DNA from: Amoebophrya sp. A120
Taxonomy: Eukaryota > Protista > Dinoflagellata
Direction of reading: 5' to 3'
DNA length: 64,000 bases
Assembly: GCA_905178155.1 (NCBI GenBank)
Contig: CAJINV010000002.1
Location: 1,919,216 to 1,983,215, forward strand
The position numbers and the translations under genes were made by a program. Each line of letters starts with the position of its first letter. The first letter of the stretch is position 1. The notes under the pieces were generated by a model. The model saw nothing but the letters and a program-made list of their open reading frames with translations. It did no database searches and was not told the DNA's origin. This document shows positions 16 through 63,900 of the stretch, piece by piece.

Positions 16-1019
16 TCATCCAAGTCCAACTCCAACCACAACTCCGAAACACACGAAGAAATACAGAACTATTCCCAGAGGTGGACCCAAGAAAGGACAG
101 CGTGTTTGCATCCCATACTCAATTTTGTCAAACGGTCCGAAGCAGTACACATCTGCACGACCTCCGCTGGCGTTGTCGATCTTATCAAATGCAAATATCG
201 ATCTGGGTCTGGAAGGCGAAGGATGCAAGGTCTGGCGTCCTCATGCATATTTTGCATGACCCATGAGGTCTGGAATGTAGGACATAGCATGACAGATTCT
301 GTGAGAGTTCTATCATGCCTATCCTGCATGAGAAACTGCCTCTGAACTAGGTCAACAAAAGTGGGCAGCTTTTGGTAACTATGCAACACATGTTTTTACA
401 TGATTCAGGTTCAGCATGACAAGTTGCTTTGTTCCAGACCCAAACATATTAATTTGCATTTGATAGATCTCGTCCGGGTACAGTCCGCTCGCCGCACCAT
501 CCTATCCACTGCAAAAAGTATCGCACTCGTAGTAATTGCTGTTATCTTCTTCACGCATGAGATGAAATCTCACACTCTAGCTTTGCCTGATCCACCATGA
601 CAAGAAACTGCATTTATTTTCTACAGTTCGGAAAATTTCAATTTGTAATGCAATTTATATATACTAGTACGTGTACGATACTGTTTTGCAATGCATACGT
701 CCTTCAGGATGTGAACGGCTTCCTCCTTCGCGTTGAACAGCCCAATCATGCCGGAATCACAGGAGAAGAGGTTACCCGCGAGGCCCTCAACCGACTTGGA
801 AAACCCGATGGAAGGACAGGTCGCAGAAACGTCGTTGGCAGATGCAGCTTGGCCATCGGCAGAAAGCTTTTGCTGGTTTTCGCGTTCATGTTCTTCTGCG
901 TTGACCACCATGCTGGCAGCCAGTTGTGCCGTGTCAGCGGAGGCTGCGAGCAGGAGACCGGCAGCAGACGCGGAACGGTACTTGCTACGCATGGGCAACG
1001 TGGGATGGTGGTGCGACAT
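16..1019 (-). CDS. Hypothetical ~171-aa membrane protein (hydrophobic N-terminal stretch, C-terminal TM); 2 introner introns
   Basis: Removing 503-697 and 183-465, each plus one 5-bp TSD, gives 516 nt in frame: ...HILKDGAASGLYPDEIDNASGG...LGIVLYFFVCFGVVVGVGLG*. Start codon choice is uncertain. Confidence 0.65.
183..465. mobile_element. Introner family A (283 bp)
   Basis: TIR tatcaaatgcaaa..tctgggtctggaa; TSD gatct/gatct. Confidence 0.9.
503..697. mobile_element. Introner family B (195 bp)
   Basis: TIR tatccactgcaaaaagtatcg; TSD catcc/cgtcc. Confidence 0.85.
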
Positions 1020-1684
1020 GGCTACTCTGCCGTACAATGATGAAAGCTGTTTTATTCAAAAATTGGCGCAAAGACGGCAAGAGCCGGTAGAGCTAGAGAA
1101 AGTAAAAATTACTGTGTAGCGACGAATGTATAGAGATGCTCAGGAATAATCTTGGCTGTCTGAAAAAGGGGTACTGCTGCAAGGGGGCAGCTAGTTGCAT
1201 GTCCTGGTCTGATCAATTTTTTCAAAGCTGTTGTACTGTCGCTCTTGCCTTAGTGGTTTCGCTAGCAGGCGTGAAAGACATGATCTATCGAGAACGAATT
1301 ACCTTTATTAGAGCCGGAGCTTATACACAAAAACGAGTAAGGAAGAACGAAACGAAAAGGAGGCAAAAATGCGACGAACACCAGGAACAAAATTAATGAC
1401 GAAGACGACAGCGCGCTTTCCTTTTTGAGGAACGAAAACGAAAAATTCTACTACAGGTGGACGGACGATGGAATCGAAAGCAGAATGTCAACGAAAATGC
1501 AACGGTCTTCTCGCGAATATGAGTAGCAACCTTGGCATCACATGAGGCAACAAACCACGTTGCAGAACAAGGCACTCCTGTGCGAAGGGTAAGTACAAGG
1601 CGACCAGGGCACGAGTGGCCCTTGCTCCTCGGGGAATGTTAAAATCTGGCAGCCGACAACGACCGGCAACAGAGTCGTTTCGGC

Positions 1685-2460: not shown

Positions 2461-3154
2461 CACGTAAGAACAACAACAAAAGCCGCCGCCTCTCCTCCTC
2501 TTGCTTCTAACAAGTGGCGCGCTTTGCTTTCGCGTTTTTCGTTTTGCAAACAAGATGAAGACTACATGGCCGACAAAGCAGATGCAGAAGGTCCTCTCGC
2601 ACGGATAATACATAATAGTTGCTCCAAGCTCAAATGGAAACATCCCTCACTCGACTGCTCACATCTTCCTCTTCGTATACGAAAATAGAAGTGCTATTAT
2701 TTTCTTTCAGCCTTGTGCCGGTTCTCCTTCCCCCTCAAAAAAGCGTACATGTCGTGGAACAACAGAAGCCGTGCCCCTGCAGCATCAAATCAAAATATTG
2801 ATTCACGACAAAAACCCAGGGCACGATGGTGATATTAACACTCGTTCCGCTAGGGCACCATTGCGCGTTGAAAATATTCCGCGTCCACCAACTACAACCG
2901 TATTCAGGTGGTCTTGCGTAGTACTCTAATATTCACAGTCTCGACCAAAACTTGTGAATGTCATGTCGATGTCGCTTGAAAATTATCTCGCTACTGAATT
3001 TTCAATGTATCCATATAAATCAGGTTTTCATTTTCAAAAGTATCGTCGTTTTGAGTCCACTTGTTCGCCACTTAGAAGTGATTCGTTGGATTCATCTTCT
3101 TGAGAAACTACTACAGTCCGGTCTTATCCGCCAACACAGTTCATGTTTAATGCT

Positions 3155-6100
3155 CTATGACAGCGCCTCCAAGAACGTCATATTCCGGATGTCGTTCGGT
3201 ACCAAAAAGTAGTTACTCGGCAACGGCGGCACGTCGGGCATCGCGACGTGGAGAATCCCTTCGCTGATATCAATCCCCGTGACGAGGATGTATCCCGCGA
3301 GCTGCATGTACTGCAAATCTTCCTCGGATTGCGCCCGGATGACGGCGAGGGCGGGAATATGGAGGTGAAAGAAATTTTGGTTTGAGGAGGTGTCGTAGTC
3401 TGGCATGCCGTTGGAGGACATTCATCAAATGTTATTTTTTCATATGCAGCATACATAGGTTTCGAGTCCTACAACATGTTCTTGACAGTCTTACGACACC
3501 TCAACTACCAACATCAAAGCTTTCTCTTTCATAGGTGTGAATCAGCTCAGAAAGCCGTGTGCGGTCAAACACCGAAGTTGCTGTTTTGATTTTTTTTGTC
3601 ATGCAGAAATCAATAGCAAATGCCATCAATGGCGACATGGACATTTGTTTCTGATGCGCGATACTACGTGCATAACATGATCTGTCATGCATAAGAGCTC
3701 AGAGGAAAAAAATCATGGAGGTACTCAATTGCGGGAAACTGCGGATGTTTCCGTCCATGTCGGATCGGTATTCTAGCCTTGTCGTGTCGCTTATCGAAGG
3801 AAAAAGATTTGTCATGCGGAGCTTGCATTATGCTGGTTTTCTGTTCTTCATTTGTGCATGACAAGTTGAACCTATAATTTCAGGGCTCGCAGATACATGC
3901 TGACGGTCACCGTTGTTCCAATACTGCATTGCTTGTCCTACAAGAAAAACCAGATAAAGATAACACTCTGCGAGCGCCCGCCCATGACAAATTCGATCCT
4001 CCTTCCCATACACTGGAGCAAATTGACTTGGTGAAGAGGAAAGGAGCCGTGGTAAGCCGTGAGGGGTACAAATTGCTGCAGCACGAGGGGAAGCTCTTCG
4101 CCAGGCTGGGGAAAGGGGAAACCTGGTTTAGATTTGATGGAACGCGCATAACAAATGCCGACTTGAGGGAGCCACGACTTGCATCACATATTTTCATCTT
4201 GATCTTTCGCTGAGTGATCAAATGGAACGAACACGCATGAAGAGAGACCCCACACAACACAAAAATCAGAAATTCTTCATAACAAATACCGTTGCTAATC
4301 GGCGACACGCCCTGGAAGTACTCCCGCATCCTCATGTGCCTCTGCATCCGCAGCGTCTGCGCGTCTTCGTGGAACGCCCCGTCGGTTTTGTCGATAAACG
4401 CCACGTCGACGTTTTCGGTCTCGAACGCTTTGCGCAGTTTATCGGCTAAGATGTGGTCGTCGATGCAGAGAATGGTGTCGATGTAAAATTGCCGAACCAG
4501 GGTCTGGAGGATATCCACAGTCGGGGTGCTAGGCGCGTTTAGGATGAGCCCGGATTGGGAGATGCGCTTGACATCTGTATGTGTGATTTAGATTTTGTAT
4601 GTGTGGTTTTGTAAATACGGAGTGAGAGTGTCGAGTTCGAGGAGAGCAGTACAGATTTGGCTTTAGATAATGGAACCGCATGAAGACATCCTGACTTCGC
4701 CTATACCTTCCGACATCTCCAGTTCTAGCTGGTGTTTCTTCAACTCCTTCGCCGTATTTGCGTTGCTGTTCGCGATTACTTGGTCCAAGAAAGAGCTCCC
4801 CATCAGCTTCTTATTTACCACCGTCGCGAGCCTGCTGCAGACCTGCTCGTACAACGGTATGTTGTCGCTCCACTGCATGTTGCCGTAGAAAAACGTTATC
4901 CTCTTTGTCTGCTCCTCCTCCAGAAATTTCGGTATTGCGCAGTGCACGCAACTCGGCAACCCTTTCAAAGGCTCTGAGACCGAAGCCGTATACCTGGTAT
5001 CTGTTTCGACGTACAAAGGCGTCCTCGCCCTTCTTATCGCGTAGTGCCAGAGGATTTCCGACACTACCGATTTCCCACTCCCTATCCTATGTAAAAACGT
5101 CCCCACCCCAAAGTTGTCATGTAGATTTGCAAGCACAAGAGCATTTGTATATGCGCATCCCCATGAGAGACATTTCCCATCGTGTTTTGGAACTTGTAAT
5201 GCTGCAAAAAGGATAAGGAGATGGATTTGTTATGCGGCTTCTCTTGCTAAGCTGTCCTCCAGTGCAGCCTGCAACTTGTCATGCGTGATCCCTAAAACTT
5301 CAAGTTTTGTGTTGCAAAATCCCCATCTTGACTCTGGGGTGGTGACGCGTTTACTCAGGATACTCCCGTCTGACCCACACACCATCACCCGCGGTGCCGC
5401 CGCGCCGACTTCTATATCCTGCGTAAAAACGTCCCCGCCCCAGAGTTGTCATGCGAATGTGCAATGACAGGAACATTTGTAATGCGCATCTCCTCGAGAG
5501 GCATTTCTAGTCGTGTTTTGTAATGCTATAAACAGAATGAGTAAATGTATTCCTCATGTGGCTTTCCTTTCTAACCAGCACTACACTGCAGATGGAAGCT
5601 TGTCATGCAGAACTGCCAAAACTCGGAGATTTGTGTTGCAGATTTCCCATCTTCACTATGGTGTGGGGGCGTTTTTACGTAGGATATTCTATGGCGCGAA
5701 TTCGTCTCCTCTCGATGACCGCGGCGCAGTTTGCGTACTGGTTCATCTGGGGGTTTGCCGCGGCGAATTCCTGCACTGTTGGCCCGGTGATCTGCAAAGT
5801 GCAGCCCCGCCAGGTGTAGAAGCCGGACCGGGAGCCGGGGAGAATGGAATATTCTTGCTCAATTACCATTTCCTTCCCGAAAATCTCCGCGGTTCTGGTT
5901 GGGTCCGGCCCTCGTTCGCTGTGGCAGACCTTCACAGTCACCGGGTCGTAGAGTTTGTCGTCCACTAAAACGCGGTATTCCGTACCGGCGTCAAGCTCTA
6001 TGCGCCGGGATCGGGGGACTTCCTGTGTTTCATTTGTTTTTGGATCATGATAAAAGTGGGCGTGATGAAGAGGCACGGTGCAATTCTTGCTCCCATGGTG

Positions 6101-7545
6101 CAACAGCCATTGAGTGTGACGTTTGTAGTGCTTTCTCATCCAGTTGCAGCATACCGTCATAAACAGAATCACATTCACACAAGGTTGTTCTCAAGATCGC
6201 ATTCAGCAGCATCCTTACCCTCGGCTCTGCCGCAGATTCTATCCCCGCCGTGCTGGTCATCCCTCGATTTGTCTTGCTAACCTCCGATGTGAAGTCCGGT
6301 ATTGGCATGAGCCCCGTGCTATCAAATGCAAATATGTCTGGGTCTGGAAGAGGACAAGTTTGTCATGCACATTTTCCATGGTCTACGATGTCTGTTATGC
6401 ATGCCCGCCTAGCATCACAGATTTTCTGAGCGCTTATCGATGCGCATCCCGCATGACAAATGCCCTATCCGTGTAGGCAAATTTGACTGCTCTTGCTGCT
6501 CGTGCAATACAGATTTTTTTTAGCATCCCAATGCAGCATCACAAGTTGCACTGTTCCACCTTCCAGACCCAGACATATTTGCCGTTGATACGTGCCAAAG
6601 GAGCTAGTGTTGCCCCCCTGGGAAGAAGCGTTATCGAAAGACGTCAGTAAGTTTGGGTTCGAAGCCGCACCCGCCGAGCTGGCACTGCCCCCACCATGAC
6701 TGCCCTTCTTGTGTCCGCCCTTGTTATGCTGTCCTCCCCCGCCGTGTTTGTCAAATGACGGCCGGTTGTGTTGTTGAAGGTGGTGCTGTTGACCTCGTGC
6801 TCCACCGTGGGGCGAAGGCTGTTGCTGGTGCTGCTGGTGCTGCCCCCCTGGCGAGGGTTGTGCACTGGGATTGCCGCTTCCAGCCGCGCTTCCGCCTAAT
6901 AACGGTTGTAATGTCGGTATGCAAGAAAAAAACTGCGTAAGTGTAAATTTGTGTTGCAGAAGATGCAACAGAGTTCCACTAGTCATGCCAGACAGCCACG
7001 AAATCCTCTTTTCATGTGTGTTTTCCCTTACAAACCATGCATGACAGGTTTTCTCTGTCATGTAGAGCAAATTTGTGATGCTGTTCCTCGAAGAAAGTTA
7101 CACCTACACACTTTTTTTCCTGGATAGTCGGGCTGGACTTGATTTTCCGTGCGAGTTCTTCCATGGAGGTTTATCAAATGCAAAAATGTCTGGGTCTGGA
7201 AGATTGCAGCCTGTCATGCTAAATCTGCAGCATGCAAAAATCTGTGTTGCATGATTACCAAAAGTCGTCCAGTTTTACCCAAGTCGGGAGGGAGTTTCTC
7301 ATGCAGGATAGGCATGAGAAAGGTCTCGCAGAATCTGTCATGCTAGGTCCTGCATTCCAGACCTCATGGGTCATGGAAAAGCAGCATGACAAATCGCGCA
7401 TTCTTCCAGACCCAGACATTTTTACATTAGATAAGGTTTGATCCGCAGCTGCGACGTTGGTCGGGTCGAACCCGGACTGCGAAACACCCGCGGCAGAAAA
7501 GGCCTGCGACAATAGGTCGCCTAGACCGTCAGGGGCGCCAGACAT
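3155..7545 (-). CDS. CLP1: Polyribonucleotide 5'-hydroxyl kinase / cleavage factor Clp1 (~675 aa) with Q/H/G-rich N-terminal extension; 7 introners + 4 GT-AG introns
   Basis: N-domain ELDAGTEYRV...AEIFGKEM...FYTWRGCTLQITG, Walker A PRVMVCGSDGSGKS, SGLILNAP, RMREYFQG, C-domain LIHTALAVIRA...LAGYILVTGID...LPSNYFLV. GT-AG introns at 6023-6218, 4575-4706, 4123-4289, 3581-3724. Spliced length 2028 nt = 676 codons. Confidence 0.88.
3358..3533. mobile_element. Degenerate introner (176 bp)
   Basis: tatg...cata ends, weak TIR, decayed TSD gggaa/ggtgt; element+5 removal restores LIHTALAV. Confidence 0.65.
3792..4010. mobile_element. Degenerate introner (219 bp)
   Basis: tatcgaagg..atttgtcatg / catgacaaat..ccttcccata; TSD decayed; element+5 keeps the frame. 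Confidence 0.65.
5083..5362. mobile_element. Introner family G (280 bp), inside the Clp1 Walker A
   Basis: TIR tatcctatgtaaaaacgtcccca; TSD ctccc/ctccc. Confidence 0.9.
5415..5686. mobile_element. Introner family G (272 bp)
   Basis: TIR tatcctgcgtaaaaacg; TSD ttcta/ttcta. Confidence 0.9.
6320..6590. mobile_element. Introner family A (271 bp)
   Basis: Family A TIR; TSD cgtgc/cgtgc. Confidence 0.92.
6918..7126. mobile_element. Introner family F (209 bp)
   Basis: TIR tatgcaagaaaaaaactgcgtaagtgtaa; TSD gtcgg/gtcgg. Confidence 0.9.
7172..7433. mobile_element. Introner family A (262 bp)
   Basis: Family A TIR; TSD aggtt/aggtt; interior inverted relative to 183-465. Confidence 0.92.
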
Positions 7546-8358
7546 TTTTTCGCAAAGGGCTTGTATAGCTTCAAAAGAGAGTGAGTAGCGTCTCTTACTC
7601 CTTTACAACCATATCACCCTTCCAAGTAGGGGTGCATCGAGTGCAACCACAAACACCGTTGTGTCATTTGTAAGTAGATACTGTTAGCTAGTCGTGAGAA
7701 AAACCTGGCCAGGCACGATATGTTGCTGGGAATAAATCAAAAAAAAGACAGCCCAATACCAATGGAGCGAAAGAAGTGCTGGCCTGATGACGTACAAAAA
7801 ATCAAAAGTAGTTGTCGCTGGTGCCATAGAAGTAAACAAAATCGATTCGATCTAGGGGAAAAGAGAAAATGGGAACTACTTACAACTACATCAGAAGATC
7901 TCAGTCATTGGCGTTCGTCTTCCTTGTTCACTATTTGTTCAGGCACCTATCAAGAAAGAGTAAAAGAGATCGAAGCTTGCTTAGCTTGCGCTGATGTCTG
8001 GTGACGCTCATCTGCCTCTAAAACGGGTGCAGAGAATGATCTTTTTTGTCGCAACAAGAAATGTTCTGCTCCTTAGCAAGAACGCGTTCTGCAACTGCAA
8101 ACATAGATCAACAGAAATCACAAGGACAGCAGGTGATCGTTGAACGTTCTGGCGCAGCTACGAAGTGATCGAACACCTTGGACGATCTTGTGAAATAGAC
8201 CTGCAGTGGCTCTTCATCTCGCCCTTGTAGTTGGGCGCCAATTTATTGTTTCAAGAAAAGCGTTGTAATTATTGTGATTGAGCATGTCACCAACCTTTCA
8301 GTCCAAAATCATCGTTTCTACTGGAGGTTTTTAGAAAGCTATTGAAAAAATAACTTCT

Positions 8359-9043
8359 TCATGCGAGCTGTCCGCAGTCCGCGATCACTACTGGCTTCAT
8401 GGTTTTTCCGCTGCTGGACCCGCAATTTTCGATTTTTTTCAGCACCATCATCCCCAACTCGCCATTCGACACTTCGCCAAATACCGTGTGCTTCCCATCC
8501 AACCAATCCGTTTTTACCAAACAGAGGAAAAATTGCGATCCGTTTGTATCTTTCCCCGCGTTTGCCATGGAGAGTATTCCCGGGCCGGTGTGCTTTAAAG
8601 TGAAGTTCTCATCTGGAAACTTCATGCCGTAAATTGACTCACCACCGGTGCCGTTGCCGACGGTGAAGTCACCCCCTTGGCACATAAAACCGGGTATGAC
8701 GCGGTGAAAGGTCGTGTTTTTGTAGTGGAGGGGCTTGCCGGATGTGCCGATACCTGCGGTTTACAAATTTGGAGGGATGATGCAAAGATGCTGATTGTGG
8801 ACAACTACTCTGTGCCTGTGATAGAAAGCCGGCAACCTCAAAGTACTTCGTGATGCACGATATAAACCACGCAAAAATGAAATCCGTACCTTTCTCCCCT
8901 GTGCAGAGTGCCCGGAAGTTTTCGCAGGTTTTTGGCGCGTGGTCTGTTCTGAGCGTGATTTCGATTCTCCCGGCTGGTTCCTTCCCAATCATCATGTCGA
9001 AAAAAACGACGGGGAGGGAGTCTTGGTCGTGCTGTTCCGCCAT
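8359..9043 (-). CDS. Cyclophilin-type peptidyl-prolyl cis-trans isomerase (182 aa); one GT-AG intron 8754-8889
   Basis: [14 protein letters not shown]...[27 protein letters not shown]...[27 protein letters not shown]...[15 protein letters not shown]...WLDGKH.VFG. Confidence 0.97.
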
Positions 9044-9672: not shown

Positions 9673-10626
9673 CTATATGTACTCCCCTGCAGTTTCTAGC
9701 ATTCGATAGCGTACTTTCTTCCTTTCTGGTCCTTCCTTCGCGTTCGCTTCACTTCTACCTGGAATATCTGCTGTCGCAGCTGTCTCGCCATCCTGATAAT
9801 CTGCTTGTGCTTCTTCGAAAAACGCCAAATAAATCTTTTTCTTCACGTGCTGCGCGATCCGGCCGTAGGAGATCAAATCCAAAGGCTTCAACTCCTCCAA
9901 CTGCTCCTTTTCCAGACATTTCACCAAAAAATACCCGTGCGCGTTGATCGGGTCCGTGGCGTAGACGACGAAATCCACGCCGTGAGACGTGATTGCGGAC
10001 TTTACGAAGAAATTTGTGTTTTGGAGTAAGTCGTGCAGTACGGCGGTGCGCAGTGGCGTTGTCGTGTCTGTTTCCCTCGGTGACGAGCCAAGAACATGAT
10101 CTTCCGACCATCTGTTTGGTTTCTCCGCGTGTCGTGTGTGCTGCTCCTCATCGTCTGTCGAAAGATACCTCGGATGGTGCGCTTGCAGCCGCACGATGGA
10201 TGTTTTGACTTGTTCAGCAGGGGTCGTGCCTGTGCCTACACTCAAAACATCATGTGGCTCGCTTCTCCCAAGAACAGGCTGGGGCCGTGAGAAGCTACTT
10301 GACGATGAAGACGAGCTCACTGCTGCTGCCTGCGTCGGTCCTCGCTCGGGTGAGGTGACTTTCCTTCGCTTGTTGCTTTTATCATCAAGATCCTCCGGCT
10401 CCGGGTCGGCATCTCGCTCTGCATCGGCGGTTCTCCCCGTAGTCCGGTCAGCAGATGCAGAGCTCTTTGCCCTGCCCGCACTATTCCTTTCCGTCACCTC
10501 GTAGAAGAACGGCGGGCCGAGCTGCAAGTTTTGCTGTTTGGCGTTCGGAAGACAACCTATTTCCGTTCCGACGATGTTCTCGTCCTTTCGGATGCGGAAG
10601 TGCTCGGCGATCGCAAAGTTGAGCAT
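9673..10626 (-). CDS. SEN34: tRNA-splicing endonuclease catalytic subunit, Sen34-like (start may lie further upstream)
   Basis: N-terminal IVGTEIGCLPNAKQQNLQLGPP resembles the Sen34 IVGxLxGxLP..PQQN..LGLP block. C-terminal nuclease domain DFVVYATDPINAHGYFLV...LDLISYGRIAQHVKKKIYLA retains the Tyr/His/Lys triad. Confidence 0.85.
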   Translation of the reverse strand: MLNFAIAEHFRIRKDENIVGTEIGCLPNAKQQNLQLGPPFFYEVTERNSAGRAKSSASADRTTGRTADAERDADPEPEDLDDKSNKRRKVTSPERGPTQAAAVSSSSSSSSFSRPQPVLGRSEPHDVLSVGTGTTPAEQVKTSIVRLQAHHPRYLSTDDEEQHTRHAEKPNRWSEDHVLGSSPRETDTTTPLRTAVLHDLLQNTNFFVKSAITSHGVDFVVYATDPINAHGYFLVKCLEKEQLEELKPLDLISYGRIAQHVKKKIYLAFFEEAQADYQDGETAATADIPGRSEANAKEGPERKKVRYRMLETAGEYI

Positions 10627-11179
10627 GATGGTTTTTCGTATTTTTCGTGCTAAAGCAGCTGATCCGACTTTGTTATCATGGGCTCAATCACCCCTACTAC
10701 TTGCAAGGTGAAGGCGAAGGGCAACGAGAAACACAACAGTCGACTTCGACTTTCGATTATTTTACTAGTTTCCTCTACAAAACATACTTGATCAGTGGCG
10801 CTGAGGAGTAAGCAACAAGAGCATAAGCAGTTTTTTCTTTCCGCATCAATGATCTTCGGTGCTGGGACACAAGCAGAAACGAAGGGCGTGCGCAGGAGGC
10901 GCACTTCTCCTTTTGCTCCTTCCGTCGATCGGTCGATCATTCACGATCACGCTTCGTCATTCTTACTGCATTTTTACAGAACGTCCACGAAAATCAAGAT
11001 CTTTGATTGGCGAAATATGATCGGCGCTGCACTGCGCTGTCTCGTCACTGCGTTCTCAGCGGTAGGCCACTTCTGTCCACTGAGTTTGAACACATCCCAC
11101 ACAAAACATTCCCGTGGCCATGACCATTGACAGCTTCAAGAATACTTACGAGCGACGCCATACCCGAAAGCGCCACGGC

Positions 11180-12120
11180 TACTTGCGACCGCCCCGCGGA
11201 GCGAATCCCGTGGCCTGGCAGCACGCAGAATGAGCAGGGGCCCGAAGAGAAACACATACGCCGCTGGGGAACGCAGGCAAGGCTGCAAACAAAGAAATGC
11301 CGGCCCGACCTGTCCGCCCGGCGCCTTCCGAGAAACATCCCGGCCCGCGACAAACGCCCGGCGCCTGCGCCCGCCCAGGCGCCCCACGGTGGGCAGGGCA
11401 GCGCGCGACAGGAAATTTCGCCAGCCCACCGGGCCGGGCGGCCCTCAAGGTCGGTAGGCGCGAGACACCGCCCGGGCGCGCGGCGAGCCCGGCGGGCGAC
11501 CAGGCCACCAGCTTTGGGCGCAGGCCGTCACTGTGGCGCCGGCAAACAAGGGCGCCGATAAGGCGCGCGGGCCGGCCAGGCGGCCAAATAGGACGGGCCC
11601 GGGCGCAAGAAAACGGCACAGGGGGGGGGGGGCGCGCGCTCCCTCGTCTCAACCATCGGCCTGGCGCAGTGCCGTTCATCTGGCTCTGTTTTATGCGTCG
11701 CGCGCGTCTCCCATTTCGCGGGTGCGGGCTTTCTTGACGAGCCGCGCCGCCCCGCCCGCGCCGGCCGGCCCAAAGAAAACGGGCGGGGGGCGGCCCCGAA
11801 GAGGGGCGGGCGGGGCGCGCGCCACAGGGCAACAGGCGCCGGCAAACAAATCACCACGCGGGCGCATGCCGCGCTGTTCTCGAAGGAATTTCTCGCACTC
11901 CATAACTGACTCGACTCCCGAGCCTGCCGCGGTGTGGGGGGTTGCGCCCCATGTTTTTACGATGTTTCATCTTTCGAGCAAGAAAACATAAGGGGCGGGC
12001 GGTCTGCCGTCTCTGGGCGCTGCCCTGCGCGCGGGCGCCGCGCGCGGCTGGGCGCGGCGTGTTGCGCTAGACGGGGGGCGCAATGCGGAGCGGGGGCGCC
12101 CGACCTCCCGACTGCTTCCC
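11180..12120. other. GC-rich non-coding intergenic island
   Basis: Same composition; upstream of SEN34; boundaries approximate. Confidence 0.6.
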
Positions 12121-48900: not shown

Positions 48901-51900
48901 CTTGTCCTTTTTCTTCGCATGCCCCTCTGCCGTCCACGTTTTTATCCCTAAAAGCTCGTCGTTCGCCATCAATAGTCTGTCTCCCTGCTCTAGTTGTCGT
49001 TTACTCGCCCAGGACCCGACGTCGACGTGAGTCAAAGTACACTCATCAACCAGGCTGGAAAAAGGCTTGTTCGCGTTCCATCTCCCTGTTCCCCAGTTGA
49101 AACCAAGACTCCCCTCCTCCGGCTCTATGGAGTTCGCCTGCACCTGGAAAAAACACAACTCGTGGGACCGTTTGAGAAACACCATGTCGATACAGGGAAG
49201 GTCCAAATACTTCTTCGACTCATGGAACTTCGTGATGTCATACATCCGCATCAACATCGCCTCGTCTTGGTGCTTGCCCTTCCACGACTTCGTTATCGAC
49301 GATGGCTTCGTATTGCTCGCCTGCAACAAAATATCCCCCGCTTTCAACTTGTTCCGGTGGCCGACAGACCCGAAATCCGGATCATCCACGACCCTGACCA
49401 CCGGGTACTCGGACCAATCGAGATTGAAGCCCCATATCTGCCTTAATTTTTCATACGACTTCAAATCTTTTGATTTGATGATCGCCTTGTCGACGTCTTT
49501 TTGCGAAAATTTGATGAAGCAATCCTGTAACTCCTTGGGGGGAATTCCTGGTTCTGGTTGATTTGTTTTTTTCTGACCCGGGATCAAAGTCTGCGAGTAC
49601 AATTCCGGCGGAAAATCGTGGTTGAACGAGACGACTTTTAAGAGATAAGGGAGGAGAAACGGCTTATTCCTCCCAAACTCCTGTTTCTGCTCTTTTTCCC
49701 TTGCCGCTCTTTCCCTTTTCTTCTCCAACAATTCCAGTCGTTCTTTCCTCTGTTTCTCGATCCGCTCGTGCATTTTGTCCATCTGCTCCAGCTGTGTCTT
49801 CTTTTCCTCTTCCTCCGCTTGTTGCCTTGCGATAATCCGGCCGGCGGGGGATCGTTTGTAGTTTTTCTCCTTCTCCAGCTCCTCTTCCGCGTGTTTCTCG
49901 CGTTCTAATTCTTCCTGTTTGACTTTTTCCTGCTCATCCAGCTGTTTTTTCTCCTCCGCTTCTGCTTCTGCTTGCTTCGCTTCCTCCTCCTGCTTTTTCA
50001 GTTCTTCTATGCGAGGCAAAAGCAACGGGCTCGTAACATGAAAAATCGAAGCCATGCATGACAAATCGATGGCCTGTATGGGAATCAGCATGACAAACTG
50101 CGTATTCTTCTCTAGAAAAAATTTTTAGTGCGATTTTTGATTACTACCACGGTGCTTTTGTAATGGAATATCTTCCATTTCCTTTTTCAATTCCTCTTCC
50201 TCTTCCAAAATTTCCTCCTCATTCGGCACGTGCTTCTCGATCGCCTCGTGCCAAAATTCGATCTTCTTCGTCACCTCCGATGCCAAATGCTCTAATTCCT
50301 GCCCCCGGTGCATCAGTTCCGGGGTGAAGCCGTGCTGGTGGCCTTGTTCCAGCGCTTGTTCGTATTCGTGGTGGAGGTGTTCTAGCTCTTTTTCCAGCTC
50401 TTCTTTCTCATGGAGGAGTTCTTTTTTCTTCCAATGCGGCTTGGAGTGAAATTTGTGGTCAAATTCTAACCGGACAGGGTCGACTTGTGGCTTACCTTTT
50501 TTTCCAACGCCTTTTTTTGGAGCGGCTTTGCCTTTCGGTTTTGCTTTCGCGGCTTTGGCTTTGCCCGGAGGTGCAGTGGCGGATTTCTTACTTGTTCCAG
50601 AGGCTGGTTTTTTCGGTGCGCCGCCGCGGAGTTTTGGCTGATTTATCGGCGTATCCTGTACAAAAGTATCGTACTCGTATTGCAATAATGCATTACAAAT
50701 TTTTTTCTGAAGCTAAATCCGCATCACAAATTTTATTTCTCATGCTGAGGACATTTGTATTGCATTTATACGAGTACGATACTTTTGCAGTTCATACGGC
50801 GGCGGCGCGTAGCCGTTTTTTGAACTTGTTAGCAGAGGTTGTGTTGGGATTGACGCAGTGGAACGTGGAGTGGAAAAAACGACAGATGATCGCTGTGCAC
50901 CTGCACCATCTCCCGCGCGAGCAGAGAGAAGCTTCTTTGCGTGTCTGAGTTCCGCATCAGTGGCTCGACGTCCGGAGGTTGAAGAGGAGGAAGCGGAATT
51001 GCCTGTGATTGGAAACGGCGGTTGCGGAGGAACCACTGTGGCTGCAGCACGCACTGATGAAACTGGCGGACCAGTTAACTTCGGCTTGTTATCGCTTGGA
51101 GCCACGACGAGCGGCGACCTTGTTCTCTGCTTCGTCCTGGAGGAAGAAGTAGGCCTTTCGTAGCTTCTAGTTGTAGCGGGCTGCTCGGTAGTTTCACTAT
51201 TGGAAGAAGAAGACTCTTGCATGCTCCGAAACAGCCAGGCGTCGCGATCTTCAGCGGTTTTTTCATACAACATTTCTGCAACTGCGTCACCACTTGACGG
51301 CTCCGGGTAAAAAAGCATGTTCATGTTCGTCTCATGCTCCAGCATCCGCTGCCGCAACAAAGCCATGCGCAACGGTAGTTGCATCTCATCCTCCTCCTTC
51401 AGCATCTCTTTCCGCAAACTCGCCAGCTCGTCCAACTGCGTCATCGCTTCATTTTGGTTTTTCGCGATTTTTTCGTTCTGTTCCTCCTTTCTCAACCTCG
51501 CCTTCAAAGTTTTCTCATCCTTCACCCCCTGCAACTTCTCCGTCAAATCTTCCGTCGCGAGTTCGTCCATGTGCTTCATCGAAGATAAGTTTTCCGGCTT
51601 TTTCCTCCAAAACTCGTCTGCAGCACGAGCTTTCGGTAAAAATTTGAAATCAGCCTCGTCGTTCGCATTCTGCAGATCTTGCTCTAGTTTTTCGGAATAG
51701 GTTGGTTGTTTCGCAATGTTGTTTCTTTTCCTATGCTCCTCCGTTTCTGGTTTTCTTGTACTTGGGTCCAACCCCAAAGACATCAAAAACTGGTGCGTCT
51801 GGCGTTCCGCAATCGCAGCTTCGACTTCCGTAGGGCGGTCAATTCTCGAGTTGTCCATTTCCTTCCCTCTTCTGTACCACTTCTTCGCGATTGTTGCGAC

Positions 51901-54900
51901 TTCTTTCCTCCGATTGCTATCCTCGTCTTTGTACCGGTTCACGATTTCTAAAATTGTCGATGGTTTTTTCCACTTGTACTTGTGCCTACTAGACTTGATG
52001 TAGTTGTCCCAGGGTTTCGGCACTTTCAGCCGCATGTTGTTCTCTAAAATTTTCAGCCGCAACTTCTCCGGAAACCCAAATCCAAGCGACAAATCGACTT
52101 GCGGAGCACTATCGTTGTTCGTCCCTTGTCTCCGAAACAGCAAGTATTTCGGCCAGTTCAAATTGTAGTCGTGTTTCGCTTCTTCGACGACAGTTTCTTC
52201 CCTATGGTGGTGAGAATGGTGCTTCATTTCGATCAATTTGTGCCGGAATTCAATCCGGCTGGGGTCGAGGATGATATTCTCTCCCTTGTCCCGTGCGAAT
52301 TTGACGTATTGCTGATCATTCACGATGAGCAATTCGTCCCCGACCTGGAACCCGTTGTTCGCACCCCAGTCCGTGCTGTACTTGAGAACCTCGCCAACCG
52401 TGGAAAGAGTCGTGTCGAGGTTTTTCGCATATTCCTCATCTTCGGAAGTGGATGCGGGGAAAGAAGGCGGGTTGAACACCCCGTGGACCACTGTGGATTT
52501 GTTTTCGATTTTGTCATTCTTCGGCGTGAAAGCGGAAAAGTTATCTACATTTTTTGGTTTCGTCGCGGTTGCTGCTAACACAGATTTCACGATGTTCGTC
52601 AAAGTCGTGTTTTTATTCCCGAGTAATTGTTCCAAATTTGTTGTTCTTTCCAACGCAAAATCATTCCCATCGCTCGTTTTCATCCGCATAGAATAAAACT
52701 CCACACTGTCTTGGAGGCAGTAAGGATCGTCGGCCTTCACCTGTAAAAATTCCTGCTCTTTCACGTATTTCAACAAGCAGAAATGAATGTCCCCCGCTTT
52801 CATCCGCGCTAGTTTGTGCAAAATCGCGTGCTCAGGGGAATTCGTCGTTACAGTGATCCCCTTTTGCGCCGCGGTTTTAGCACCTGGCTTCTTGTAGTCC
52901 GGATTCGCTTTCTCGAATTGCCACCACTTCAACATGCTATTCCGTCCGGAAATTACCGTGTCCATGACAGTTAAGAGCAAGTCCCCCGCCCGGATGTTGT
53001 ACTTCGTCGCGGCTATAGAATCCTCCGCCGGGTCTTTCGCGACGCGGACAAAGGGAAAACGTGACCAGTCGAAATATAACCCGCCATTCACTTTGGAAAA
53101 CATCCGGCAGCAGATCTGTGCCTGGTCTTTGTCGTTTTCGATCTTGTTTAAGTGCTGCTGGATCGCCTGGTAGGACGGGCGGAGGGGCATTTTCACCTCG
53201 ATTAGGCAATTGTTGTGAATCTCCGGGTTGTCGGAGAAGGGGAGGTACTGAAGGGTGAAGAACGACGGGGCTTTTTTCACTTCAAATTTACTGGCAGTGC
53301 TGCTTGACGGGGGTGATGGCGCAGCTCCAGCTTTCTTCTCGACTGCGGCAGCGCTAGAAGAAGACGTCAACATCACCACCTGTTCTTTCGACGCCCCTCT
53401 GCTCGACCCCGCTCCAACAACGGTTGAATCCTTCGTTGCCCCGTGGGCGCCCTCGAACTCGAAAACGCTTTTTCGGAGGAAGTTTTGTTCCGCTGATTCT
53501 TCTTCCTCTTTGTCTAGAGAGGACGGGAAGAGTAAATTGCGAACCCGGTTTATAACCCGCTCAGGTATTAAATTCAGCACGAGTTTGAAAAAAAAGCAAC
53601 TGCTTTCCTTTTTCGTCTTTGAAACCGAAAAAAACAACCATCGCCAATTTTGATCAAATTGGAAAGTTGATCCGCGTGCTATGCTGGTCCTCGGAGCTCT
53701 CGGACCTGTGAAAAAACCTAAAATATAACAAAAAAAGCGCACTTTTGGAGATTTTGAAAAGCTAACCACGACGGTGCGGGGTCTCTTTTTCCTTTCGGAC
53801 CTGTGAAAAAACTACTTTTCCGGATCCGGCAGAAACGGGCCGGGTTTTTGGGTCCATTCTTGGACCCTTCCCACGGCGGTATGAGGTCGATTGATTTCAG
53901 ATGTTAACGCCCCCCCTGGAGGGGGGGTGCTTCCTCATCCAGGTTTTCTTGCAGAAAAAGCTTGCTCTTCTCTTGTATAAAGTGTTGCCTTTCCAAAGAT
54001 CGAAACCGCGCCGGCACCTTCGCCATACCACCGGCGGACTTACCGTTTAGGGACACATCAACAAGAGAACTGGAAGACCTTCGGACCAGCTAGCTTAAGA
54101 GCTGGGCTTTGAAGTAGCGACTTTAAATGGCGACGATTTGAGAAATAGCGGCTCGCTTTTTTTCAAAATATCGCTGAATTTGATTCCTGAGCGGGTTATA
54201 CGGTTGGTCAGCGGGAGGTGGGGCTTTTTTATCGAAGGTTCTTTGTCATGCTGTTCTTCCGTCCCAGACGCAAGTTCAACATCAACGTGTACTTCCTCCA
54301 GATCGACTGTGTCGTCTAGAATCTGCTCCACATCGTGCAATTCGTCGTGGTCATCAGAGGAGGAGTCGTCGGAAGCAGAAACTGCATCAGAAGACTCACC
54401 GATTTCTTCCCCGAAAGTTTCGCTTTTCGGAGTAGGATCAGGATCTTCATCTGAAGGACCGCCAAATCGTTGTTCGGCGGCATGGTTGTTATGCGGTGCT
54501 AAAACAAGTTGTGCGTCTTCCACATCCTGTTTATGAACGGACAAAATGCAAAACCGGACACGAAAAAAACCAAGAATAGTTGCGATTTTCAATTTTTGGG
54601 CGGTTCAGAGTTGGGTCGTGAGGCGACGCGGTGCCCATGTTTGGGCGACCAACAGCGCCAAGAACTGGTGGCCGCGAAGCCTTGGCGCGGATGTGGGGTG
54701 GGAGCCTTTTCGGGGCTGCTGCTGGCGGTCCGCTTGCTCTTCGGCCGAGTTTCAACAAACGAAGCGAAGGCGCAAGGGCTTTGACCGGGATGGACAGCAG
54801 ATCCCGCCCGCGAGCTCTGCCAGCCCGCCTAGCGAGGGGGGCCCATAATGAGTTACGCCATTGCGCTTGCAACGGCGAGGCCGGGTTTCTGGTTTCGCCT

Positions 54901-57900
54901 CTGTGTTGCCCAAATATGGGCTCGGTGGTTATCATGGTCTCGGCATGAAAAAAAAAGGGAAAACCCGAACCCAGCGCCAGCAGGGGAGGGCGATCAGCCG
55001 CGCAAACCGGATCGGCGAAGGGGCCTGGGTGCTTCCCGGCGTGCGCCTCCCCCCCCCCCCTTTATTTTCCATCCCCATTCCCAGCCCACCCAACTTTAGC
55101 AAGGTGGCCCTCCAGTCCCCAGCATGTTCGCCATCCTTCTCCATCTTGCCTTCCCCTGCGCACCCAGTCCAATGTTTCGAAGGGTGTGGGAAAGCCTTCA
55201 TCCACACCTGCCATTTTGTATGTTGGGTGGGCGCTTTGCCGCGTGCGAAATTGCAAATCGGCAACAGAAAAAAAACAGGCCAAATGCGGAAAACCCAGGG
55301 GCCGCGATGTTTCTTCGGGCGGTCGCGAAGGGGCCCAACGACAAATATCCAGCGTTGAATGTGCGCAAGGCCGGGCAAAAAACCTGCAAGGCGTCGAGGC
55401 CGATTCAGGGCCGCAAAAGATGGCCGATCCAAGAATCTTGGTTTTTTCGCGGGTTTTTTTCCCCATCTGGCCAATTCTTGGCCAAAAAGCCGCTTTTTGG
55501 CCAAGAATTGGCCAGAAGGGGGAAAAAAAACCTGGAAAAAACCAAGACTCTTGGTAGGGACTTTGCGCGCCGCCTTGCAAATTCGAAGCGAAACGCCGCG
55601 CGCTTGGCCCGGTCGCGACTGCCTGCGGAAGTGTCGCGGCCCCGGCACCTTTCGTGTTTTGGCTGCTTTTCTTGTTGTTGGCTCGCAATTTTGCACGCGG
55701 CGAAACCAGCGCCCATCACCTAAAACCGTAGGCGTTTGAAGGTTTTTCGCAGCTTATGGCCTTGGGGCAGCGACGGTTTTTTCGTGGGTGTTTTGCCCCC
55801 TTCGGCAGCCAAGGGAGGGACCCTTCCCCGCGAATTTCGGTCGGGCAAAAATGCGAACAAATTCGGAAGCAGCCCCCCAAGCACGCTGCAAGCTTTTAAG
55901 CTATTTTTCCGCAGCCAATTTTTCCGACGGGCCGAGCGGCGGCTGGGCCCATGCAAGACCAGAGGCCACAGCCCCGCCTCTCCCTGTCCGCCCCGCCTCC
56001 CAATCCCAGCGCTTTGCATGGGAGGGCCCGCTTCAAATAAAGTTGGCGGAAGGCCTAAGCCTAGGCTCTTTCTAGTATCCCGCTGCCCCCTGTGCGTGAC
56101 TCCTTGTGGCCCAACTTCAGGCCACAAGCCTCGGCGAAGTCCGCTCGGTGGGCGGGGTGGTAGAGCTCGCAGGCGGGGGTTGTTGCCTGTCTCGCGTGAA
56201 GACTTTGCGCCTTCGTTTCGGGTATTGGTGTTGGGCCGAAGAGAGGGCTGATCGCGAACAACAACCCAACAAAAGAATCGCCTGCGCATCCGCGTCAAGC
56301 CTTCCCTGCGGCCAGTTCTTCTCGTTGTTGGCCGTCCGGGCGTTGTCGTTTCGTCTTCGCACACACTGGCCGCGAACGGCCGAAAAGGTGCGGATCACGA
56401 TTATTCTTGGTTTTTTTCGTGTCCGGTTTTGCATTTTGTCCGTTCATAATCCTGTTCCAGGAACTCAAGCGTCTCTTCATCCGTCACCTCCTTCACGTGC
56501 AGTTTCCGTTTGCTAGGTGACAACTCTTCGTCCGCGGTCTCCAGGTAGAACATGAACGCCTGACCAGTGGTGCTGGTCCAGGATTTAGAAAGAGCGTCTT
56601 TTGGTTCTTGGTCTTTCTCCTCTCCCTCGGACTGCGATCCCGCGAGCCAGGAAGTGTCACTTCCGTTCTCTTCTTGCTTGCCGCGTTCCAGCACACCGTC
56701 GATTTCTACGTCCGAAGCGGCGAAAATGGAAGATCTGGCAGCCCCTTCCGACGATGAATCTGACTCTGCTTCAACATCCTCACCTTCCAAATCTTCCGGG
56801 GGCTCCGGATAGTGCAGTGGCGCGCCGGTGGATGCTCCCTTTGAAAAGGTGGAAGCGCCCATCTCCCCCGAAGCAGCTCCGACCATGTTCCACCCATCTG
56901 GCAACTTCCGTCTCAAATTCGGCTCCTTTTCTTGCAAATTCTCAAACTGCCCTCCGGGTTTGAGCCCGCCGGTCATTGACCGAATGAGAACCATCACCGG
57001 TCTCTTCGACTGCAATGCTTTCTTCGCGTCCTCGGCCTTTTTCGCGTAGACAAACTGATCCGCAATGGAGACGAGCATTTCCGCTTGAATACCCTGCGAT
57101 TGTGCCCAGGATCCATCCGCGACAGAATTAATCTTTCCCGTTTCCGGATCTATCTCCATCCCGAGACAAGCGGAAGCGGTTCCATTTTCCTCCTCTTTCG
57201 CGACATCTTTCTCGACGAGTAATTGCACGTATTGGTCCTCCTTCACTTTCCGTAAGAACGCAAACGCCGCGACGGGGGTTTTCCCTCCTTGTGATCGTTC
57301 TTGCACTTTCTTCAAAATCGCCTCCTCGGGCGATTCCCCCGGCCAGCGCGCAACGTTGGTAATTCTTTCTGACATAGAGGCGCAAACCAGCATCCTGTCG
57401 CCGATGACCACGCCATTTTTAAACGCCCGGGTCTTCTCACCGTTATCATCTTGCTCCCTTAATTCGCTGACGGTGACACTTGGGTAATCGGACCAATCGA
57501 GTTTGATGTGGAAAACCTCGTAGAAAATTTGTCTTATCCTGTGCAAAAGCATACTAGTACTCGCAGTCATGCAAGACAGCTTTCTTTTTTCAAGCTAAAT
57601 CAGCATGACAAATTCCGTTTGTCATGCGGAGGTAATATGTATTGCAGTACTACGAGTACGATACTTTTGCAGTTCATATGTCTCGCGTTGTCCTTATTCA
57701 CGCTGGATAATTTCTCCGTATCGATCGACGTTTGCGCCCACCCGGTCACGCCCGCGGCTTTGAGGTCTTTGATCCCGCCGAGAAATTGGTAGAGATACGG
57801 GAATATGGATTGCAAAAGCATCGCACTAGTAGTAATCGCATTACAAATTAGCTCAGCACGGCAAATGGAACTTGTCATGCTGTTTTAGCTTGGGATGAAG

Positions 57901-60900: not shown

Positions 60901-63900
60901 TGCATCACAAATGAGGGGGACGAAGGGAAGTGATGCACTCTCATACGGATTTGTAGTTGGCAATGATCCTTTTCGACGGCTTGGTCATGAGAGTGACTAG
61001 CTCTTCTGTGGAAGTCGCGGCCTTTGTTTCCTCCTGCTTACGACCTCGTGCGGAAGCCGGGGTTGCGCCAGTAGCATTACCGTGCTCCGCTACCTGTTCC
61101 TCGACGAAAAACCCGAACCCTTCTCCGGGCGAAATCTCCTGCTTCACGTTCACAGACAGCTGCACAAACTGTGTCATACTCTTCTGCCTGAGAAATTCAA
61201 ACGACCCGACAAGTGTCGTTGTGTTCTGTAGGTATTTTTTCGGCAAAAACTTTTGCTTCTCTTCCTTCGCATCCAACGGTTTCCCGTCTTTATTCAGTTT
61301 CACCGCTTTTTTCTTCATCCGGCCGGTAGTTGGATCTAGCTCCATCTCCTCAGGGTCTTCATCCTCCTCCCCGGGTTGCTCTGGGTCCTTGTAGATATCA
61401 TTTCTCGACAGCATCTTCAACAAGACCGCCTCGTCCGGGTCGTTCCCGGGCCAAAGTCGGACGTTTTCGATCGGCTCTTCGTTCACGAATAACAACCTGT
61501 CCCCGACTTGCACCTTTTCATGCACTATCCTGTGCAAAAGTATCGTACTCGTATAAATCCGCTAAAATTTCTATGCAGAATCTGACGGACAAGTCGGTGA
61601 GAAGTCGGTTGCGAAGTTGGTTGCGAAGTTGGTGCGGAAGTCGGTGAGAAGTGGCGCGCGCCACTTCTCACCGACTTCCGCACCAACTTCGGTGAGAAGT
61701 GGCGTCGCGCCGCGACATGCTGGCGTCGTTCTCGCCTCGACCAAGCGACGCGTCGCGTCACTCCGTCGCTGCGAGTTATATCGTGCTCGCTGCTTGCAGT
61801 TGCCACTGCAGCTGCAAGAGCTGGAAGGAACAGCGCTGCAGATAAATGGAAAGAAGACCGCAGTCTTGTTCTGTCCGTTTATCTGCAGTGCAGTTTCATC
61901 AGTTAGCACGACGGAACCACGCGCAAAGCCGTATACAAGAGGCGGCAGGCCGCGCGACCGTGATTTCTGCGCGCGCGCATCTGTCCTGCGTGCAGCCATC
62001 AAAGAAAGAATCGCCGGAAGCGGAAGACAGCTTCCCTCGGCGATGTGGAGCTGCGCGCGGCTTGGGCGGGCAAGCTTTGAACGCCGGCCATTCTCGCCTG
62101 GCGCTGATTAATTAATTGATTAGCTGAGCAGCCAATTACTCAGCTAATCAATTGATATATTGTCTGCGTTTTATTTGTTTTCACAAAAAAACGCGAGTTT
62201 GCGTGCGCCCTACATCAAGTAATGCGCAAATCAATAGCTCACTTCTCAACAACTTCTCCACGCACTTCTCAACAGCTTCGCGACGAACTTCCCGACGCAC
62301 TTCGCAGCAAGCTTTAAGCTTTTGGAGGCGTCATGCAAGAATTAGCGTGACGCCTCCAAAAGCTCAAAGCTTGCCGCAGAATGCGCCGGAATGTTCGTCG
62401 CGAAGCTGGTAAGATGAAGTGCGTAGAGATGTTGTTGAGAAGTGAGTTATTGCTTTGTGCATTAATTGATGTAACGCGCCGCGCTTGCCGCAAAATGCGG
62501 CGTCGGCGTGCTTTTTACGTGCGGCCACGAATCGAGGCCCGGGATATTCCTTCTGAGACGTCCTAGCCGGAAGCCTGTCAGGAGCTTCGCGTGGATTTCA
62601 ACTCTGCGTCAAGCGTCGGAACAACCGCGGCAAGCGGTCTACGCCAACTTCTCAACAGCTGGGAAGTTGGTGAAAAGGTTGGGAAGAAGTTGATCATAAG
62701 TTGTTGGGAAGTTGGTGAGAAGTTATATTCATGCCAGTAGCGGATTTATACGAGTACGATACTTTTGCACAGGATATGCACGTACTGGTTCCATTTCGTT
62801 TTTTTCTCGTACACGGAAGCAACTTTCACGTTCGGAAACTCGTTCCAATTTAAGGTGAATCCACAGTACGGCCCGAGTTTTTTCTTTCCCGGGAAAACCT
62901 TCTTGTTGTTCAACAGCTCGTAGTCCTCTTCTGTGAAAAACGTGTACGCTATGAGAGTGCACAACTCCCCCTCCCCCTCATTTGTATAGCATGAGGAACA
63001 ACAGAAGCAATGCCAAAAATGTAGCCTTTGCATGAGAAATCCGTAAATGGAATGTAGTCCTATTTGGGGGTGCAAAACTTGTCATGCACAGAGTGCTTAA
63101 AGGCAAGCGCAAGGTGTGAGGTAGGTATTTTGCATGACAAATGAGGGGGAGGGGGAGTTGTGCACCGTCATATACGTCCACCCGATCCCGACCTTCTCGA
63201 TCAGTTTGTTGTTGTGAATCAAAGGGATCAAAGACCGCATAAACGGCGCGGGCTTTTGCGGAATGTTTGTGGCTACTTGCTGTGGTGACCCAGGTTGTTT
63301 CGGCGATAAAACAGGCGAAGACAGCGGTTGTTGCGGTCCTGTTTTCAGCATCTCGATTAAGTTTTGCAAACCGGAATTCTCCAAAACCTCCTCCCTTTCC
63401 GATTTCTTCCCGGCTAAGAGCCCGTTATTTTCCAAGAACTTCAGCGCTTCTAACTGTTGTAGATGAGTCGCTAGCAGTTCCTTCTTCCCCTCTAGACTCG
63501 GTCGGTGTTCCTGGGGTAAAACGGTTGTAGGGACTACCGTATTATTCTCCTTCTTTCGCATGTTTTGGAGGAAGTTGTCGCCGACATACTCCAGCAAGGC
63601 GCTGTTCATCGCGTAGAAGTCGTGCGGGACTTATCCACAAAAAAAGACCCGCCATCCCCATCCAGTTTCCCAGGCAAAACATGCATCAGAGCCAGTGCCT
63701 GCCATGCAAAAAATGGATGGGAATGGGTGTTTTTTCCTGGATAGAACTGGACGGGTTGGATCATCGTGGAGCTCAGGATGGTGGCCAAAGATGCGGTTGC
63801 CGAAGAAGCCTGGAGAGGTGGTACTGGAAGAACTTTGAGTTGCTGCTTGTCCTCTTGGGTCGGCACCATTTTTATCGCCTGGTAGCAACCCAAGAACTTC

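Follow-up and report, generated by a model that had tools for sequence, protein, structure and literature searches.

The DNA considered here is a window of 64,000 nucleotides from Amoebophrya sp. A120 (contig CAJINV010000002.1, positions 1,919,216 to 1,983,215; positions below count from the first letter of the window), in which genes are interrupted by insertions framed by terminal inverted repeats (TIRs) and short direct repeats. The system is already known; the removal from RNA and the empty orthologous sites described below confirm it, and a fixed register of the cut within the direct repeat is a new testable handle on the mechanism. Relaxed scans together with inspection recovered 56 elements of 112–1917 bp, while a sequence-only reading of the same DNA had counted 58 over the same length range, two of which were not recovered. 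The first scan sought inverted-repeat pairs with a perfect flanking direct repeat and presumed no TAT; its largest class was nonetheless ‘5-bp repeat + TAT start’, with 30 matches. One match, 2796–3615, was discarded as a false element. The 5-bp geometry is found in 54 of the 56 elements, with 34 perfect and 20 imperfect pairs of copies. The earlier tally was 36 perfect repeats, 5 bp long in all but one element. The two exceptions among the 56 are one element with an 8-bp repeat and one degenerate element (~50030–50170) with ill-defined ends. TAT-type ends are present in all 54 five-bp elements, with one base altered in five of them, and TAT-N7-AAA ends in 42 of the 56. BLAST clustering gave families of 15, 14, 7, 4, 2, 2 and 2, that is seven multi-copy clusters, plus 10 singletons, close to the claim of at least 10 families with dissimilar TIRs.

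The terminal dinucleotides are free, as had been proposed, with 37 different pairs among 54 elements, and sliding the borders allows a GT-AG to be placed in two of the 54 only (19169 and 42454); that none can be placed at 7172–7433 was confirmed. For 39 of 53 elements, structure prediction yields a TIR stem. The elements are non-autonomous TIR DNA-transposon insertions, resembling miniature inverted-repeat transposable elements (MITEs), with 5-bp target-site duplications (TSDs), and, judged by sequence, they match the published introner elements of Amoebophrya A120, so the class is already known. The longest, 54532–56448 (1917 bp), has inverted arms of ~300 bp and the 8-bp direct repeat, and its removal with either 5 or 8 additional nucleotides keeps the frame; none of its 10 open reading frames (ORFs) of ≥100 aa matched Pfam. 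The next, 61526–62776 (1251 bp), is bounded by family B ends whose TIR is perfect over 39 bp, and its interior is palindromic. A Pfam search for a transposase in 11 ORFs of these two elements gave 0 matches, as did Rfam at its gathering threshold across the window. The transposase that mobilises the elements does not lie in the window.

All element-bearing genes of the window, and all features given in this paragraph, lie on the minus strand. Gene 1 (171 aa, ~1019–16) carries elements 183–465 (family A) and 503–697, both covered by the frame test below. A gene of the CLP1 region (~3160–7547) carries 5083–5362, 5415–5686, 6320–6590, 6918–7126 and 7172–7433, each flanked by a perfect 5-bp TSD. 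Gene 4 (114 aa, strongly expressed, 12301–14985) has elements 13761–13909 and 13965–14278, skipped in RNA by joints of 154 and 319 nt (contig sets X3 and X4, see below), adjoined by canonical introns 13325–13475, 13576–13718 and 14317–14441. Gene 5 (2285 aa, with a thioredoxin-like domain by Pfam) holds 14 elements within 16463–22984: 16463–16682, 16747–17006, 17076–17396, 17967–18225, 18838–18989, 19169–19442, 19579–19805, 19921–20073, 20636–20788, 21678–21940, 21993–22202, 22289–22435, 22529–22737 and 22835–22984; one RNA contig lacks nine of them, each together with 5 nt. Gene 6 (1276 aa, weak GNT-I match, 28801–31815) carries 28801–29013, 29238–29401 (which begins TGT on the plus strand), 30487–30660, 30697–30931 and 31562–31815, the first three being seen as RNA joints of element plus 5 nt. 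Gene 7 (603 aa, a fatty acid desaturase by Pfam) has elements 36098–36370 and 36433–36683, both with RNA joints, and canonical introns 37402–37519 and 37674–37799. Gene 8 (>5100 codons, 40253–63743, running off the window) contains 26 elements starting at 40253, 40667, 41497, 42454, 43245, 44847, 45910, 46178, 47171, 47847, ~50030, 50652, 53551, 54532, 57535, 57804, 58682, 58889, 59236, 59637, 59833, 60180, 60715, 61526, 62950 and 63632, the first six with RNA joints of element plus 5 nt; its canonical intron 42890–43052 is common to the window and its ortholog.

Removal of element plus 5 nt keeps the ORF whole for 49 of 49 elements in six genes, whereas removal of element plus 4, plus 6 or plus 0 does so for none, and retention for one. 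In this test two elements with undefined ends were given frame-keeping placeholder removals. Codon-multiple coding lengths had been claimed for seven genes; those of 516, 345, 6858, 3831 and 1812 nt were reproduced, and 2028 and 15375 were not exactly reproduced. For gene 8, 5153 open codons were counted from the window edge, and in the CLP1-region gene the ORFs across elements are open after removal, although the complete model did not close. The frame test cannot separate plus 5 from plus 2 or plus 8, and RNA was therefore needed.

The RNA evidence consists of assembled contigs from X3 and X6, which are one sample, and from X4, a second sample of the same study. Their identity as RNA is presumed from their behavior, which is that of spliced poly(A) RNA: six canonical introns are skipped, an oligo-T end lies at 12301 and depth in intergenic bins is zero. 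Of the raw RNA runs, X9 has coverage of a single gene, confined to its 3′ end and with 0 joints, and X10 and X11 gave 0 reads. In the contigs, 22 of the 38 covered elements are removed as element plus 5 nt, on the basis of 13 listed joints, two pairs of adjacent contig pieces and seven cases of exact-length arithmetic (123 and 414 nt, expected equal to observed), and the listed joints show no other gap size at an element. The comparison of complementary DNA (cDNA) gaps with element length that had been suggested as a check thus came out as predicted for every listed gap. The other 16 covered elements, including 7172–7433 and those of the CLP1 region, have no joint among those listed, or low depth. 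Removal is seen in at least six families plus singletons. Elements are therefore absent from messenger RNA (mRNA) by exactly element plus one TSD length, as earlier claimed. One joint, 40335>40535, lies within element 40253 and has 14 other letters; it was set aside as a shorter paralogous copy. Gene 4 stands out by a contig depth of ~1000 and long untranslated regions (UTRs); X9 covers only its 3′ UTR, with template-switch adapter ends at 13236.

That the direct repeats are target-site duplications follows from empty sites in a related genome. Metagenome contigs were scanned with a family A end, giving 132 loci, of which the 80 listed are all from assembly JACKZZ01. The ortholog of window 38966–43960 is formed by two overlapping JACKZZ01 loci with ~89% exon identity and intact frames; it lacks the window elements 40667, 41497, 42454 and 43245, leaving a single copy of the 5-mer at each site, and carries its own elements where the window sites are empty. 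Across the related assembly, 195 perfect ‘5 bp + TAT’ matches and 246 distinct elements follow the same grammar, and the detector found 110 elements in 40 related loci against one in shuffled loci. The statistics below are based on the 56 window elements and on these 246 elements from the 132 seed-selected loci, 149 of which could be oriented, via codon usage. We note two further observations from this comparison. Among the oriented family A elements (loci L001–L132) that match the seed at one end only, the match is at the donor end in 46 and at the acceptor end in 18 (p=0.0006), a bias that is absent from the 14 family A copies of the window and could be orientation bias or sampling. Canonical intron 42890–43052, compared with locus L058, contains a core of ~55 nt better conserved between the species than its flanks, with no Rfam match at the gathering threshold.

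Perfect TSDs let a junction slide, which explains why earlier work described the borders as variable or unknown; where the two copies are imperfect, the position of the cut can be placed. The decisive case is element 43245–43398 (intron 43241–43399, minus strand), whose TSD copies read GAGCA/TCGCA on the plus strand and whose orthologous site is empty. Its joint 43240>43400 (X3 and X6, one sample) cannot slide, with no shared bases. Read along the transcript, the two copies disagree at bases 4 and 5, and the mRNA has four bases of the upstream copy followed by the fifth of the downstream copy, giving the intron A-TAC...ATA-TGCT. The ortholog agrees with this: its empty site reads TCGCA, and of the two changes in the left copy of the window, the one that falls in the exon leaves Arg unchanged, while the one that would alter the residue is intronic. 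Four further elements bracket this register. Element 44847–45054 (span 44843–45055, TSD TAGAG/CAGAG on plus, donor G-TAC) retains at most four upstream TSD bases, and so does 21678–21940 (21673–21945, ACGAA/GCGAA on plus), where an RNA piece end at 21673 assigns transcript base 5 to the downstream copy; in the latter case the contig depth is 3.9 and the joint itself is unlisted, its position being taken from the piece end. At least four are retained in 17076–17396 (17071–17401, TGCTC/TCCTC on plus), where an RNA piece starting at 17397 assigns transcript base 4 to the upstream copy, and in 28801–29013, whose three TSD mismatches permit only four or five and whose joint 28795>29014 shares one base. 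The sole register common to the 13 listed joints is the retention of four upstream TSD bases. One register thus fits every listed junction: the intron is N-TAT...ATA-NNNN, cut after TSD base 4, which we call the 4+1 register. The cut falls inside the TSD, not at the element end.

Because the cut lies within the TSD, the T-A-T of the TIR sits at donor positions +2 to +4, as in canonical GTAT and GTAC donors. In the 4+1 register, +2 is T in 54/54 elements, +3 is A in 54/54, and +4 is T in 52 and C in two; the seven canonical donors examined in the window, six of them RNA-confirmed, are GTAT four times and GTAC three times. GT/GC...AG appears in this register in 1/54 elements, so the elements are not classed as standard U2 introns. 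The exception is 42454–42715 (minus strand, orthologous site empty), where the transcript TSD is GGAGG and the 4+1 cut yields a canonical GT-AG intron, 42450–42716. A free alignment of donor regions gave no informative pattern. The TIR is symmetric, and its two ends therefore act as an internal control. In the window and the related assembly together, TIR bases 1–2 are altered in one of the 156 donor ends, compared with 12 of the 184 acceptor ends (Fisher p=0.004), and in the related assembly alone in 1 of 102 against 9 of 130 (p=0.046), seed-matching ends being excluded and the single donor case kept though probably a false call. Positions 4–28 of family A deviate alike at both ends (86 deviations in 37 donor ends, 153 in 64 acceptor ends). 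The A at −7 was considered as a branch point (54/54 in the window, 148/149 in the relative), but the base at the mirrored position of the donor end varies hardly more, and nothing was concluded from it.

Elements and canonical introns also share a motif, GCAT[GCT]ACA[AG], at 9.7/kb in elements and 8.3/kb in canonical introns compared with 0.09/kb in coding sequence; on either strand it occurs in 52/56 elements, 4/7 canonical introns and 243/246 related elements. The motif may serve a transposase or a splicing factor, or the canonical introns may be old elements. Counted from either end of an element, it usually first occurs after 36–48 nt; spacings of 14, 18 and 31–32 nt are common, and it is present in canonical introns 13325, 14317, 37402 and 37674 and in window 3590–3860. 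Canonical intron 37402–37519 has weakly complementary ends (G-TATAGAATGT...ACATCTATC-AG) and resembles a decayed element.

On balance, we consider it probable that a relaxed major spliceosome takes the elements out under the guidance of the hairpin, cutting one base before and four bases after the element. Cut-and-paste insertion with a 5-bp stagger, a step shown by the empty sites, generates the TSD. The TIR stem might then join the intron ends spatially, while the first TIR bases would act as donor +2U, +3A and +4Y, common to canonical GTAY donors; with the donor supplied by the TIR, either orientation of insertion would work. Position +1 and the final two intron bases would be random TSD bases left unread by the machinery, and the 3′ cut would be set by the distance from the stem. 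Exactly one TSD length would then leave with the element, restoring the original coding sequence. In a more specific version, which we regard as possible though tentative, a spliceosome lacking U1 would read only +2U and +3A (with +4Y) and apply a fixed 4-nt ruler from the hairpin at the 3′ side, with GCATNACAR marking both intron classes. Any TAT-ended element with a 5-bp TSD would then be a scarless intron anywhere and in either orientation, so that unrelated families would converge on one end grammar. According to Farhat 2021 (PMC7789003), nearly all spliceosomal proteins and the U2, U4, U5 and U6 RNAs are present in A120, while U1 small nuclear RNA (snRNA) was not found; a spliceosome without U1 has a precedent in Cyanidioschyzon merolae. 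The predominant motifs in Table S4 of Farhat 2021 are only NT-NN in A120 and TT-NN in A25, whose repeats start with TTA.

Several points weigh against the relaxed spliceosome. A single junction fixes the register alone, seen in two runs that come from one sample, and all the genes are on one strand. The motifs of Table S4 depend on aligner placement within repeats. The end asymmetry was tested post hoc, with orientations resting on codon usage (149/246); ATA>ATG makes up 7 of the 12 acceptor changes, to which strand-biased mutation could contribute, the whole-trinucleotide count is 4 donor against 13 acceptor, and an endonuclease reading the 5′ strand would yield the same asymmetry. A spliceosome with a leftover preference for GT-AG should have selected for +1G and a terminal AG, and neither is enriched: +1G is found in 15/54 elements against a background of 27.7% (p=1.0) and in 51/149 of the relative (p=0.43), terminal AG in 2/54 and 15/149. 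The predicted stem covers +2 to +4, with a mean pairing probability of 0.73–0.82, and a common branch-point consensus, sought by eye, was not found.

The strongest competitor, which we hold to be less likely than the relaxed spliceosome, is a dedicated non-spliceosomal pathway, in which a structure-reading endonuclease would make its cuts 1 nt ahead of the stem and 4 nt behind it and a ligase would join the exons, as in proposals for euglenids or by co-opted enzymes of transfer RNA (tRNA) splicing. The free terminal dinucleotides without G or AG enrichment, the fixed distance of the stem from both cuts and the missing U1 snRNA of A120 (Farhat 2021, PMC7789003) would all suit such an enzyme, and a stem-register code, 5′-N3CDG...CH'GN5-6|R, for which the authors suggested non-spliceosomal factors, is described in Euglena (PMC12501133). 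The coincidence of the invariant bases with positions +2 to +4 of canonical donors, and an internal motif common to both intron classes, argue in the other direction, and it is on the former ground, together with the position of the cut inside the TSD, that the pathway ignoring spliceosomal signals, advocated in the sequence-only reading, is judged less likely. Exon-intron pairing outside the TIR is at chance level, and a tRNA-type bulge-helix-bulge intron was rejected, the 4-bp helix between two 3-nt bulges being complete in 1/54 elements. The window does contain candidate enzymes. An intronless gene at 9673–10626 (minus strand) encodes a tRNA-splicing endonuclease subunit (PF01974, E 1e-10; best solved match human Sen34), and the CLP1 P-loop gene (PF16575, ~3160–7547, minus strand) lies ~2–3 kb from it. 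The Sen34-like protein has Y, H and K aligned to what we take to be the Sen34 catalytic region, and CLP1 partners the TSEN complex in humans. Both are ordinary housekeeping genes whose location proves nothing, and their proximity is probably chance.

It is improbable, in our view, that the spliceosome cuts the 5′ side at N-TAT while the 3′ site varies per element, with 4+1 holding for some elements only. The legend of Fig. 3 in Farhat 2021 (PMC7789003) does call the splice sites variable relative to the hairpin, eight of the 13 listed joints are compatible with five or more registers, and neither the element with the 8-bp repeat nor the degenerate one can obey the rule as stated. However, all 22 gaps seen equal element plus 5 nt, so that the two cuts would have to move together if at all, and 4+1 fits five junctions with imperfect TSDs that belong to different families. 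Excision at the DNA level in some life stage, as for the internal eliminated sequences of ciliates, we regard as very improbable. The transposon-like ends would fit it, and the assembly may have been built from the DNA-like run X1, with 687 X1 joints beyond those listed; yet X1 contigs pass from exons into element ends and no listed X1 joint bridges an element where that element lies, the cut divides the TSD unequally, and the element-free contigs also lack canonical introns and carry the oligo-T end. Weakest of all, false introns made by reverse-transcriptase template switching, a known artefact across repeat-flanked hairpins for which a hairpin with a direct repeat is the classic substrate and to which cDNA contigs from two samples of one study could be prone, are very unlikely, since joint 43240>43400 shares no bases and 28795>29014 just one, and since retention breaks the ORF in 48/49 cases, yet the ortholog exons are ~89% identical with intact frames.

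The remaining features of the window are of a different kind. A search for homologues gave back nothing beyond the window's own protein. GC-rich intergenic islands at ~1700–2500, 11150–12120, 26700–28000 and 33700–34700 have little or no RNA contig depth where covered, and BLAST found no similarity between them and the long elements. The gene at 8345–9043 (minus strand), presumably cyclophilin-like from its translation, has one predicted canonical intron and no element.

More than 60% of the introns of Amoebophrya A25 and A120 are removed without GT-AG, by a mechanism in question since 2021, and this puzzle persists partly because the repeats conceal the true borders. The 4+1 register shows where the 5′ end of a lariat would lie, permits rule-based correction of gene models and replaces ‘no splice signal’ with N-T-A-Y, which can be tested. 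Should the spliceosome be responsible, it would accept every base at +1, −2 and −1 and go further than in the tunicate considered below; if it is not, alveolates would possess a second mRNA splicing chemistry.

How far do these features agree with known systems? The inverted repeats of A120 were already described as starting with TAT, in the form TAT-N7-AAA, with RNA support and with direct repeats of 3–5 nt, including a 5-bp example in Fig. S19 (Farhat 2021, PMC7789003). The window elements resemble those introners in their TAT-N7-AAA repeats, short direct repeats, many families plus singletons, mean length of ~240 nt and co-oriented genes. The suggestion that a rule of TAT/ATA ends plus one TSD was undescribed therefore does not hold; ‘exactly one TSD’ is a sharpening of the published TAT rule. 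Whereas the published borders are ‘variable’ or ‘unknown’, with repeat length and position varying, here a 5-bp TSD abuts the TAT and the 4+1 register fits all listed junctions. A prior statement of this register was not found in the portions of published text considered, from which, in the case of Farhat 2021 (PMC7789003), empty orthologous sites, the donor-like reading, the end asymmetry and the shared motif are likewise absent, although its Figs 3 and S19–S25 may show part of this. Gozashti et al. 2025 derive the A120 introners from diverse TIR transposons, with integrase-like ORFs in one family.

The nonconventional introns of euglenids (PMC12501133, PMC11282704) are alike in being non-GT-AG, with a terminal stem at fixed offsets, frequent direct repeats and a probable MITE origin, and there, too, the register came from non-slidable junctions. 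Their signature, N3-CDG...CH'G-N5-6|R (PMC12501133), differs in register and bases from the N-TAT...ATA-N4 found here, where the exon base that follows need not be a purine, and the window elements do not show the euglenid pattern with its purine; moreover, the euglenid signature lies outside the canonical donor, whereas that of the window elements overlaps it. Closer to the relaxed spliceosome that we favor are the introns of the tunicate Fritillaria borealis (PMC13326754, PMC11282704), which are MITE-derived, non-GT-AG and taken out by an adapted U2 spliceosome; there, the way donor +4 is read responds to changes at U6 A43, and low N6-methyladenosine (m6A) in U6 has been discussed as favoring U at +4. 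The introners of Micromonas, Aureococcus and Polarella (PMC11282704, PMC12130899) are similarly TIR/TSD transposons turned introns, with the TSD supplying part of the splice site, but they end in canonical or near-canonical GT/GC-AG, whereas in the window a GT-AG is possible in 2 of 54 elements.

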